A DNA stretch of 46,081 nt from a virus. Taxonomy: Duplodnaviria; Heunggongvirae; Uroviricota; Caudoviricetes. The stretch lies in IMG/VR virus record IMGVR_UViG_2684623059_000005. One strand, written 5' to 3'. The position numbers are program-made. The number at the start of each line of letters is the position of its first letter. The first letter of the stretch is position 1. This document shows positions 1 to 6,000 of the stretch, one piece after another.

Positions 1-3000
1 ATGGCAACACGCATCGAATTTCACAAGCACGGTGGCCCGGAAGTACTTCAGGCCGTGGAGTTTACTCCTGCCGATCCGGCAGAGAATGAAATCCAGGTCG
101 AAAATAAAGCCATTGGCATCAATTTTATCGACACATATATCCGTAGCGGTCTTTATCCCCCACCATCGCTGCCCTGTGGGTTAGGCACGGAAGCGGCTGG
201 CATAGTGACAAAAGTCGGCAGTAGCGTGAAACATATTAAAGCCGGCGATCGCGTGGTTTATGCTCAGTCAGCACTGGGCGCATACAGCTCTGTACATAAC
301 GTTAATGCCGATAAAGCCGCGATTCTGCCAGCAGCAATTTCTTTTGAACAAGCCGCCGCATCATTCCTGAAAGGTTTAACGGTTTATTATCTACTGCGCA
401 AAACGTATGAAATCAAACCTGACGAACAATTCCTGTTCCATGCAGCCGCTGGCGGCGTTGGCTTAATTGCTTGTCAGTGGGCGAAAGCCCTGGGCGCGAA
501 ACTTATCGGCACCGTGGGAACGGCGCAAAAAGCGCAAAGTGCGTTAAAAGCAGGGGCGTGGCAGGTGATTAACTATCGCGAAGAAAATCTGGTCGAGCGG
601 TTAAAAGAGATCACCGGCGGCAAAAAAGTGCGCGTGGTGTACGATTCCGTAGGCAGAGACACCTGGGAATGGTCACTGGATTGCCTGCAACGTCGCGGTT
701 TAATGGTCAGTTTTGGTAACTCATCAGGCGCAGTGACGGGTGTGAACTTAGGCATTCTTAATCAAAAAGGCTCGCTGTATGTAACACGTCCTTCCCTGCA
801 AGGCTACATCACCACGCGGGAGGAGTTAACTGAAGCCAGTAATGAACTGTTTTCATTGATTGCCAGCGGCGTCATTAAGGTGGATGTCGCGGAGCAACAG
901 AAATATCCGCTGAAGGATGCGCGACGTGCGCATGAGATTCTGGAAAGCCGGGCGACGCAGGGTTCCAGCTTATTGATTCCCTAAAAGAAATCGGGCTTCC
1001 ACCCGGGAAGCCCTTTCTTTTATAGTTCGGCTGTATGTAGGGTACAGCACGATGAATTTGTTTGACGTGCAATAGTGACAGATTTGATTATCAATTCCTA
1101 TTTTGTTCTAAGGATAAAACCTTAGGTTGTGATCATCCGCACAATCCCTTAGTAGCGCCAGCGGTCATAACGCTGATATTTCGGCACTTTTGGCGCTTTA
1201 ATCGCCTTAATCACCCACACTACCGCAATCGCCAATAACAGCCATGGCAGCAACTTAATCATCAACGCCAGCATGCCGCCGAGGAACATAATTGCCGTCG
1301 CGATGACCAGCGCGGCGATAATACCCAACAGCGAGACGCCGGTGACCATCAGCATGACAAAAAAGCCAATTACAAAAAGTAGTTCCAGCATGATGCTCTC
1401 CCCAAAATGAAATCTGCTACTGGTATTACAAGAATCATGCCAAAAGATAATTTGCTGATTTATCAGCAAAACGCCCCGCGACAATGCGCGGGGCGTGGTG
1501 AATTTAACTACTTTGTGGTGAAAAATTAACGCTTATCAGCTACGAGTCTGAGCGCATGTTCCAACACATTAATGTCAGCTCCGGCTTTATGAGCATTTTC
1601 ACTTAAATAACGCCGCCACTGACGCGCGCCAGGGATCCCCTGGAACAGCCCCAGCATATGGCGGGTAATATGACCCAGATACGTCCCCTGGCTAAGCTCA
1701 CGTTCAATGTACGGATACATGGCCCGTACCACTGCCACCGGATCGGCATCGGTATCCGAGGAACCAAAAATCTCACGATCCACCGCCGCCAGAATACCTG
1801 GATTTTGATACGCCTCGCGCCCGACCATCACGCCATCCATATATTGCAGATGCGCTTTGGCCTCTTCCAGAGACTTAATGCCGCCGTTAATCGCCATGGT
1901 CAGATGCGGAAAATCACGCTTCAGTTGATAGACACGCGGGTAATCGAGCGGCGGGATTTCGCGGTTTTCTTTCGGGCTTAAACCAGAAAGCCAGGCTTTA
2001 CGCGCGTGAATGATAAACATCTCACACTCGCCCTTACCGGAAACGGTGTTGATGAAATCACAAAGAAATTCATAGCTGTCCTGATCGTCAATGCCAATAC
2101 GCGTCTTCACTGTCACCGGAATCGACACCACATCGCGCATCGCTTTCACGCAGTCGGCAACCAGTTGCGCATTGCCCATCAGGCACGCGCCAAACATGCC
2201 GTTCTGTACCCGGTCAGAAGGGCACCCCACGTTCAGGTTGATCTCATCGTATCCACGTGCTTCTGCCAGCTTCGCACACTGCGCCAGCGCCGCGGGATCG
2301 CTACCGCCTAGCTGCAACGCGACTGGATGTTCTTCTTCGCTGTATGCCAGGTAATCACCTTTGCCGTGAATAATCGCGCCTGTGGTTACCATTTCGGTAT
2401 AAAGCAACGTATTGCGGGAAAGCAGACGCAGGAAGTAACGGCAGTGTCTGTCCGTCCAGTCGAGCATAGGAGCAATGCTAAACCGAGAATTCCAGTAAAC
2501 ACCAGTTTTTTCAGGCATCACGCTGGTTTGATTAATTTTTTGTGTTTCATGATTATCGTGCATTTTTGAACATTTCAGGCTATTTTTCTCGCGTTAGGTT
2601 CCCGCACAGGTTCCCACGTTTTATGGGAACCCGAAATAACGAGGTCGTGTAATGGCGTACTATAACATAGAGAAACGACTAAAATCCGATGGCACACCAC
2701 GCTATCGCTGTAATGTGATTATCAAAGAAAAAGGTGTTATCACTTACAGGGAAAGCAAAACATTCCCTAAACATGCTCATGCCAAAACATGGGGCACACA
2801 GAAAGTGATGGAATTAGATCTATATGGCATTCCATCATCAAATGCAGTTGACGGACTTACAGTCCGTGACTTACTACACAAATATTTAAATGACCCAAAT
2901 GCCGGAGGTAAAGCAGGCCGTACTAAAAGATATGTGCTGGAACTGCTTATGGATAGTGACATCTCCGCGATCAAACTATCTGAACTGACAGAAAATGACG

Positions 3001-6000
3001 TAATTGAACATTGCAGGCTAAGAAACAACGCTGGCGCAGGTCCAGCAACAGTCAGCCACGATGTTAGTTATCTTGGCAGTGTTCTGGATGCGGCCAAACC
3101 TGTATACGGAATTAATTACACATCAAACCCGGCGAAAAGTGCTCGTCCATATCTACTTAAACTTGGTTTGATTGGTAAATCAAACCGTCGTAATCGTAGA
3201 CCAGCATCTGATGAACTAGACATGCTCATTGAAGGCCTTCAACAACGATCTACTCATAAATGCTCAAAAATTCCGTTCGTTGATATCCTCAAATTTTCTG
3301 TGTGGTCCTGTATGCGAATCGGAGAAGTATGCCGGTTACGATGGGAAGATCTCGACCAGGAACAAAAATCTATACTCGTAAGAGACAGGAAAGATCCACG
3401 CAAAAAGGAAGGCAACCACATGAAAGTAGCCTTGCTTGGGGAAGCCTGGGATATCGTCCAACGACAGCCCAAAAAATCGGAATTCATTTTTCCGTATAAC
3501 AGCACTTCTGTTACTGCGGGATTTCAGAGGGTAAGAAGTAAATTAGGTATTAAAGATTTGCGATACCATGATTTGCGTAGAGAAGGGGCAAGTCGCTTAT
3601 TTGAGGCTGGTTTTAGTATTGAGGAAGTCGCCCAAGTTACAGGGCATCGTTCATTAAATGTGCTATGGCAGGTATATACCGAACTGTATCCGAAATCTTT
3701 ACATAATCGTTTTGAAGAACTCCAAAGGAGCAGAAATAAGACCTCTTGACACTGTTTATCCATACAGTTAAAAATAATACTGTATACAAACACAGTATAG
3801 AGGGACTTTTATGCGTATTGAGATCTGCATAGCCAAAGAAAAAATGACTAAAATGCCAACCGGTGCTGTGGATGCGTTAAAGGAAGAATTAACCCGACGC
3901 ATCAGTAAACGTTATGACGATGTAGAGGTGATCGTAAAAGCCACCAGCAACGATGGCCTTTCTGTTACACGCACCGCAGATAAGGATTCTGCAAAAACTT
4001 TTGTTCAGGAGACTCTGAAAGATACCTGGGAATCTGCTGACGAGTGGTTTGTTCACTAATAAACACGTAAAATCGGTAACGGCTGGAAATCATTCAATAC
4101 TCGCACTATCGAAAGTTCACCAGTCAACCGCAGCACGTCCTGCATACGTCGTGTCTGCGGTTTTTCTTTTTCGCTTACATTGTGTCTGGTTCTTCCGGCC
4201 ACTCAATATCAGGTGCAGTTGATGTATCAACACGGTTCAGCAACACCCGATACTTTTTCTAGGCTTCCCGTAATGAAGTCTCTTCCTCAATTACGATCTC
4301 CAGATCTGCAGCATCCTGAAGTGGGGCGCACCACGCAAACATCACAAAATATTGTCGTTGTGATGGACCTGTGCAATAGTGAATCACGCTACGTTTCTGT
4401 GTACAACGTACTGTAGTTTTCTTTACGATTTATAGCTGTACTGGTGAACCATGAGCAATCTGAATCCATACATGGCGTGTGGTGCCTGTTGTGCATTTTT
4501 CCACGTCTCTTTTTACCAGAGCAAAACCAATGATACTGGCGTAGTCGTCTCCCCGAGACTTATGCCCGTATAGCACATCTCAAATAATCTGGGATCTCAT
4601 TTCGTAGTTTTACAATATCAATATCCGGCTCGATATGTTTCTGGTAAAACTTGTCTGCAAGCAAGTTTGCTATGCTATCTGCCGTACGATTTTTTACATC
4701 TCGGCTCGCCCCCTCACAAAGAGCATCTATTTTCTTGCCAAAAGATGCATTCCCCATTATTACATGATTAATAGAACTTTGTGCTGCCTTAACATCAAGA
4801 GTTAGTTGATATTCCTGGCTCACAAGAGAAAAGACCCTTTGCCTCTCTTCAGTGGAAATTTTTGCATTTTTTTGAAAACAGTAATTATCAATCTCCTGGT
4901 TGATCACCCTTGACGGATATACTATCCGTTCATCTTTTATCCACCCATCAATATCTTTAGTACTCTGCCTGCTCACTGTGTCCAGTATATTGCCGCTAAA
5001 TTTGCGAACAGAAAAGCGAATCGTCCGTTCTCCCATTGAACATTTTATGACCTCATCATTCTTCCCTCGGAAAGAGTTTCTGAAGGAGTTTTCTCTATGG
5101 CAACTTATACCAAAAGAGCTGAAAGACGTACCTGTAGTATTCATCGGCATTATAATTCCTTTTTAAAAAAAAGTGTTTACAATATTGCATACTTGTGTTT
5201 ATTGTAGCCAGAAAAAACATGCATGCAATAATATTCTATTAAAAATTGTATTGTTTTATTCACATATCATGATCGGTATGTTGACTCTTGTTACCAATAT
5301 AGTTCACAAAATGGGTTGAAAAGGATAATAATATGCCAGTCATATTAAATTTTTCTAATGGAAGTGTATTGCCGGAAAATGAGCTGGAGGCTTTACGGCA
5401 TATTGCAAGAAGCAATCAGAATGACACTATTACCATAGGAGGCCGTAATATGAGGCTTCATTATATCCAGTTTATGGATGGTTTTAGTGTAGAGCCTATT
5501 CCTGGTGGACTTAGGGACCGTCTTGGGGCAAGAGAGTCTCATCATCTCGCAGACAACCTGGCAAGACAACTTAACGGGGGTAACACTTTTCTGCAGGCAT
5601 ACAGTTTATATCTGGAGCAGAAGCAAGCTGTCCCGTTTGTGCAGGAAAGCGTCATAAAAACACTACTGGATCGAATAAACTCGAATGCATTTCCCGTTAG
5701 TTTACAAGACTTTTCCTGTTCTGAGGAGCATCTTAATTGTCCGATAACACTACATATTCCTGAAACAGGTGTTTTTGTCAGAAATGCTCGAAATTCAGAA
5801 ATATGTGCATTATATGATCAGGAAGCATTGACTGAACTTATCCGGCGTAACGCTCTCCATCCCCTCAGCCGTGACTCCTTTGCTCCAGAAATGATTATAA
5901 GCAAAGACAAGTGTCATTTTAATATAGCAAAACAATGTTTTTGCGCATTACCCATATAGCCCCTTCAGCAAAACAGTATAAAAAAAAATAAAAACACAAT

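Follow-up and report, generated by a model that had tools for sequence, protein, structure and literature searches.

Several mobile elements are known to insert into the 5' end of dusA, a tRNA-modification gene. Farrugia et al. (2015; PMC4482086) defined a family of dusA-associated integrases (DAI), with members in more than 200 bacteria. There, a tyrosine integrase gene adjoins the dusA 5' end in divergent orientation; this end, β-1 strand of the TIM barrel included, is replaced by the element, and attL and attR are semi-conserved imperfect repeats; Escherichia phage lysogens are listed among the carriers. In C. rodentium, phage 1720a-02 (Φstx2dact, KF030445) integrates 100 bp into dusA, carries an in-frame ΦdusA', and needs Int for excision (Balasubramanian et al., 2019; PMC6328086). 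A PrtN-family excisionase, RdfN, was identified by Durand et al. (2021; PMC8409611), who also showed by experiment that an element in Vibrio dusA equips the gene with a new promoter and its product with an altered N-terminus. The replacement of the dusA 5' end by dusA-specific integrases is thus already published, for near-identical phages too. Here we analysed a stretch of 46,081 nucleotides, the IMG/VR virus record IMGVR_UViG_2684623059_000005, in its entire length ('the window'). With high confidence, it contains the left junction (attL) of a lambdoid, mEp460/Φstx2dact-like prophage, which entered codons 33-35 of Escherichia albertii dusA via a dusA-specific tyrosine integrase. The first 32 residues of DusA are then phage-encoded, and probable arm-type repeats are located in the spacer between dusA and the integrase gene.

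On the minus strand, 1526-2563 is dusA, an open reading frame (ORF) of 345 amino acids, identified by Pfam (Dus, E=8e-105) and NCBIfam (DusA). The integrase gene, int, is a 365-amino-acid ORF at 2652-3749 on the plus strand, i.e. divergent from dusA as initially annotated. The two start codons are indeed 89 positions apart, but the gap between them has 88 bases, not 89. The features of the junction are as follows.

1526..2459, minus strand: host-derived dusA body, ORF nucleotides 105-1038, from within codon 35 to the stop codon; identity 99.2-99.9% with E. albertii chromosomes, about 90.4% with K-12.
2460..2467, no strand assigned: attL core and crossover, TCGAGCAT; the reverse complement, ATGCTCGA, corresponds to the Met33-Leu34-Asp35 codons of DusA.
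2468..2563, minus strand: 5' end of dusA (codons 1-32) supplied by the phage as a replacement; no difference from free phage SKA5 or from the prophage of E. coli lysogen E47; 18 of 96 nucleotides differ from K-12.
2564..2651, no strand assigned: divergent dusA-int spacer of 88 bp, outer part of the P' arm; phage-derived, one mismatch to SKA5.
2597..2603, plus strand: GGTTCCC, candidate arm-type site P'1.
2609..2615, plus strand: GGTTCCC, candidate arm-type site P'2, 12 bp from P'1.
2625..2631, minus strand: inverted heptamer (GGGAACC on the plus strand), candidate arm-type site P'3.

The crossover was located in an alignment of six sequences, the window, attL and attR of lysogen E47, the attB of E. 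coli K-12, and the attP sites of mEp460 and SKA5. Thus, attB was represented by K-12, and attR by E47. The window followed attB up to 2459 (...GTCCAG) and attP from 2468 onward (AGGAGCAATG...). The octamer in between, 2460-2467, was the sole block identical in attL, attR, attB and attP. Because it is the only four-way identical stretch and diagnostic mismatches switch on either side of it, the crossover was assigned to this core. The attR of E47 had the reciprocal arrangement, and a truncated dusA 5' pseudogene is annotated there by RefSeq; an attR with a dusA 5' remnant was present in the related E. coli lysogens E47, L005-L007 and L010. The core is contained in TCCAGTCGAGCATAGGAGC (2455-2473); of these 19 positions, 18 agree with the attB of Φstx2dact published for C. 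rodentium, TCCAGTCGAGCATGGGAGC (PMC6328086). Further, free phages (mEp460, SKA5, Lys8385Vzw) and prophage-derived records (1720a-02, PhiR40_1 and others) matched the window only from 2458-2463 rightwards. Position 2460, initially given as the left coordinate, is the exact start of similarity to free phage genomes. Judged by its sequence, the att pattern is that of textbook site-specific integration.

How do the two sides of 2460 compare? The host is E. albertii and not E. coli. The qor-pspG-dusA flank (1-2459) was 98.9-99.9% identical to six chromosomes, with 99.9% for E. albertii SP140150 (CP025676; PMC5820351), and about 90.4% identical to E. coli K-12. Within 200-500 bp left of 2460 the identity to E. 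coli E47 was 91-92%; within the same distance on the right it was 99.5-99.8%. The segment 2460-2660 had a single mismatch to phage SKA5, and the phage side was 99.2% identical to an E. coli prophage. In the protein sequence, 9 of the 32 N-terminal DusA residues were changed relative to K-12, compared to 3 of 313 in the remainder. This agrees with the initial annotation, which had described a divergent stretch of about 30 residues ahead of a conserved protein. Could the divergent N-terminus simply reflect the species difference between E. albertii and E. coli, with the integrase just happening to lie beside an intact native dusA? The host is not E. coli, and as the dusA body has only about 90% DNA identity to K-12, some N-terminal differences are to be expected. 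However, the first 96 nucleotides were identical to SKA5 and to the E47 prophage while the adjoining host DNA was only 91-92% identical to E47, and the E. coli lysogen had the identical 9 changes. In addition, the dusA fragment is carried by phage genomes themselves; in SKA5 it is annotated as 'tRNA-dihydrouridine'. Species divergence is hardly conceivable in view of the phage-identical 96 nucleotides and the shared 9 changes, and was rejected as the cause of the N-terminal differences. Thus, the earlier claim of a prophage in dusA's 5' end and of a reconstituted N-terminus was borne out by the alignment of the four site types and by the phage identity of this segment. With K-12 as the unoccupied allele, the N-terminus is phage-derived and attL lies where it had been placed.

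These data are best explained by the following course of events. When the core of the phage attP recombines with that of the host attB (TCGAGCAT), dusA is split. Next to int and in frame, the phage has a homologous dusA segment of its own that covers the first 96 nucleotides of the gene, and attL therefore rebuilds a full-length dusA of 345 amino acids with residues 1-32 encoded by the phage. The native dusA 5' end, together with its promoter, would be moved to attR, presumably about 1.7 kb past the window as judged from relatives. For annotation this is the main consequence: dusA at this locus is a host-phage chimera, and the left boundary of the prophage is 2460, not the int gene.

The integrase has a PF00589 domain (E=1.1e-20, residues 189-346). 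In alignments of 14 and 59 sequences R222, K247 and Y342 showed no variation, and H306, R309 and H332 little or none; from the motif context we take these six residues to have the catalytic roles. The protein was 100% identical to Int of phage Lys8385Vzw, and the DNA of the int region was 97.6-99.1% identical to Φ1720a-02 (97.6%), mEp460, SKA5 and Lys8385Vzw; for int itself the identity to mEp460 and Φ1720a-02 was about 98%. An AlphaFold2 model (mean predicted local distance difference test, pLDDT, 86) aligned end-to-end with full-length lambda Int over 354-377 columns. Residues 1-58 were modelled as three strands and a helix (pLDDT about 90). The model alignment suggests a three-domain architecture as in lambda Int; between the N-domains no sequence similarity was detectable.

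A full-length integrase bears on the question whether this is an active prophage or a remnant that is decaying, immobile and fixed at dusA. Such decay does occur at this site. E. albertii CP070292.2 (L011, locus 5199-7038) has exactly the same chimeric DusA, and the adjoining int is cut to 237 amino acids beside an insertion sequence (IS) transposase. As int has decayed in this strain and the chimeric DusA is intact, the phage-derived dusA 5' end outlasts integrase decay. Moreover, one cargo gene in the window is apparently frameshifted, and neither attR nor an rdfN excisionase gene is visible within the window. On the other hand, int is of full length and identical in protein sequence to that of an isolated phage. 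Long ORFs cover the tail, head, terminase, lysis, Q, replication and immunity regions, none of which is missing, and they are in synteny with mEp460 and the E47 prophage. We consider a remnant quite unlikely; this copy may still be able to excise.

Compared with the described systems, the locus has the divergent int beside dusA and the replaced in-frame dusA 5' end of the DAI family (PMC4482086), with attL defined at 2455-2473 and attR expected past the window, and nothing essential sets it apart; the E. albertii host is unmentioned in the supplementary files of that study. As in Φstx2dact (PMC6328086) and in phages mEp460, SKA5 and Lys8385Vzw, the phage has entered dusA about 100 bp into the gene and brings an in-frame dusA' segment of its own; the core is within TCCAGTCGAGCAT(G/A)GGAGC, int is beside attL and the late genes have the 'non-canonical' orientation. 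The copy in the window differs in its host, E. albertii, and in its cargo, which consists of NleG and IpaB/EvcA-family effectors instead of stx. Integrative and conjugative elements (ICE) of the SXT/R391 type in prfC and IMEVchUSA3 in Vibrio dusA differ in kind: they are conjugative or mobilisable and not tailed prophages, and for them promoter replacement was measured (PMC8409611). Unlike lambda, the dusA element targets the inside of a protein-coding gene and repairs this gene, and the excisionase of its relatives is a PrtN-family RdfN and not a homologue of lambda Xis (PMC8409611).

In the dusA-int spacer the initial annotation had noted two direct GGTTCCC repeats and an inverted GGGAACC as candidate integrase-binding or promoter elements. 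The copies at 2609 and 2625 were found as described; the first copy begins at 2597, not at 2598. Across the window the heptamer is not enriched (7 copies compared to 5.4 expected), but three of the seven are located within 35 bp, by a rough estimate an event of about 1e-4. Are these sites for the integrase, or are they operators or promoter elements of int or dusA, bound by a phage regulator, by RdfN or by a host protein, or are they there by chance? Their position between two divergent start codons is the usual one for promoters and operators, the absence of enrichment across the window likewise speaks for these alternatives, and no arm-type sites for the dusA-integrase family were found described in the literature searched.

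Comparison with relatives was used to distinguish between these explanations. The dusA-int-dinI block was present in 733 of 5426 complete E. coli genomes. For a survey of the family one genome per species was taken, which yielded 80 loci whose Int homologues had 53-99% identity; at 55 of them dusA was divergent and directly upstream of int, with a similar spacer length in most. In all but one of the 55 dusA-linked loci (54), a core-like octamer, TCNA(G/A)CAT, preceded int by 166-205 bp; the distance in the window is 192 bp. A direct heptamer pair with 10-13 bp spacing and at most 90 bp from int was present in 50 of the 55, compared to a mean of 12 after shuffling, and the inverted third copy in addition in 31, compared to 0.6 on average and at most 4 after shuffling. 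The heptamer itself differed by lineage; the classes were GGTTCCC, AGCACCC, GTACACC, GGACACC and GGTATCC. The layout of two direct copies and one inverted copy is kept across genera while the sequence changes; a chance origin of the repeats was therefore rejected.

Further evidence came from free phages with different heptamers. In each of mEp460, YeP1 and EKP1 the phage's own heptamer occurred twice, 11 bp apart, about 50-60 bp away on the opposite side of the core. Thus their attP sites, about 240 bp in all, bear two heptamers on the P arm, and on the P' arm a direct pair and an inverted one. This resembles lambda attP (P1, P2, P'1-P'3), i.e. two plus three repeats distinct from the core, with the difference that one of the three P' copies is inverted in the dusA system. 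A heptamer that recurs beyond the core, as in these three phages, is expected of arm sites and not of a local operator or promoter. The co-variation of heptamer and Int was examined with GenBank phages; a scan of IMG/VR with the Int alignment returned 79 copies of 98-100% identity and one of 89%, which were near-identical and uninformative in this respect. Int residues 1-45 grouped according to the heptamer class. Int of Xenorhabdus hominickii had an N-terminus of the GTACACC class, and its residues 55-85 were like those of its AGCACCC-class relatives within the genus. This mosaic points to a swappable N-domain. That the heptamer class follows the N-terminal 45 residues, including an apparent domain swap, again argues against an operator or promoter, and no sigma-70 hexamers coincided with the repeats. 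We consider operator or promoter function, or chance, unlikely. The spacer GGTTCCC copies are probably integrase arm-type sites, and on these sequence comparisons the repeats are most likely better explained in this way than as a dusA promoter. Of the two functions first suggested, integrase binding is thus the more probable, with indirect support from the co-variation of the heptamer with N-terminal Int residues, and a role as dusA promoter is not supported.

In mechanistic terms, the three spacer copies would be the P'-arm sites bound by the N-terminal domain of Int. Two further copies would be expected on the P arm at attR, and all together may assemble a lambda-like intasome. Since they are located just upstream of int, the arm sites might also autoregulate int. 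More generally, it is fairly probable that the dusA-integrase family has lambda-like arm sites (two on P; two direct and one inverted on P', next to int) in which the heptamer co-evolves, in a swappable manner, with the first 45 or so residues of Int, i.e. that a readable 'arm code' exists. Arm repeats co-varying with the Int N-terminus could help to predict att sites and integrase specificity in a widespread family; this is a modest extra.

Several points weigh against the interpretation given here for the junction and the repeats. The attR of this genome is outside the window, and attB was taken from E. coli K-12 and not from a prophage-free E. albertii. Another co-inherited protein could bind the heptamers. 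A built-in scan and a more lenient hexamer scan of 2480-2760 detected no convincing sigma-70 promoter for either dusA or int. The best candidate was a weak minus-strand site with a -10 hexamer GATAAT at 2557-2552, inside the annotated dusA ORF; accordingly, no dusA promoter is assigned. Either Met1 or Met16 is a candidate start of DusA. Expression of the chimeric dusA from a phage promoter is assumed here on the basis of related elements.

About 19 loci of the survey had full flanks and lacked dusA; they adjoined genes for a DEAD-box helicase, pgl, upp and others. Arm repeats were retained at these loci, as was a vestigial 'TTTTCGTGCAT', and they appear to descend from dusA elements that changed target. 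Int homologues of 53-66% identity that are not beside dusA were observed in Xenorhabdus, Serratia, Providencia, Raoultella and others (L042-L044, L047-L055, L073, L076, L082, L094). Here, CAGCACCCC-N3-CAGCACCCC repeats were kept, and many of these loci had a vestigial phage dusA' start.

The remainder of the window is filled by the prophage. A direct-repeat search of the whole window detected no second att copy; therefore, attR is outside. The right end of the window falls within a 3'-5' exonuclease gene that starts at 45635. In related lysogens, some 2.1 kb past the start of this gene, there is a PrtN-family gene and close to it attR, with at least one small minus-strand gene in between. Because of this spacing in the relatives, attR would be expected about 1.7 kb past the window end, the PrtN-family gene likewise past the end, and the prophage would have a size of roughly 45 kb. 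The gene order from the left is int, a dinI-like gene, type III secretion system (T3SS) effector cargo, tail fibres, tail, head, terminase, lysis, Q, replication, cro/cI and the early-left operon. The prophage and its cargo, which occupies 4560-9434 between dinI and the tail fibres, were mapped as follows.

2460..46081, no strand assigned: lambdoid prophage body, from the ORF map, Pfam, and synteny with the annotated E47 prophage and mEp460; it continues past the right end.
4560-5150, minus strand: IpaB/EvcA-family protein of the cargo module.
5333-5959, plus strand: NleG-family T3SS effector, by Pfam.
7250-7903 and 7998-8681: candidate NleG-family T3SS effectors, by repeat family D1 and similar translations.

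Thus, the prophage brings type III effectors, NleG paralogues and an IpaB/EvcA-family protein, into E. albertii, which is of routine epidemiological interest. The ORF at 8703-9434 may be a further NleG paralogue. Two ORFs, 6064-6555 and 6570-7121, had no Pfam match; they correspond to one gene of 360 amino acids in E. albertii CP043262 (L016). The gene spanning 6064-7121 appears to be frameshifted in the window through an indel near 6539.

Two CTGT-N8-ACAG palindromes resembling LexA boxes were located at 3752-3767 and 3780-3795, past the stop codon of int (3749) and ahead of the dinI-like gene (3811-4059). Three such sites were counted in the window compared to 0.5 expected. The two palindromes ahead of the gene suggest that the dinI-like gene is under SOS control. 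A promoter-like TTGACA-N18-AAAAAT at 3746-3775 overlaps the first palindrome. Finally, six imperfect 43-nucleotide repeats with an irregular spacing of 36-63 nucleotides were observed at 9912-10215, inside a minus-strand ORF at 9678-10997. They probably encode a collagen-like Gly-X-Y stretch of a tail-fibre protein.

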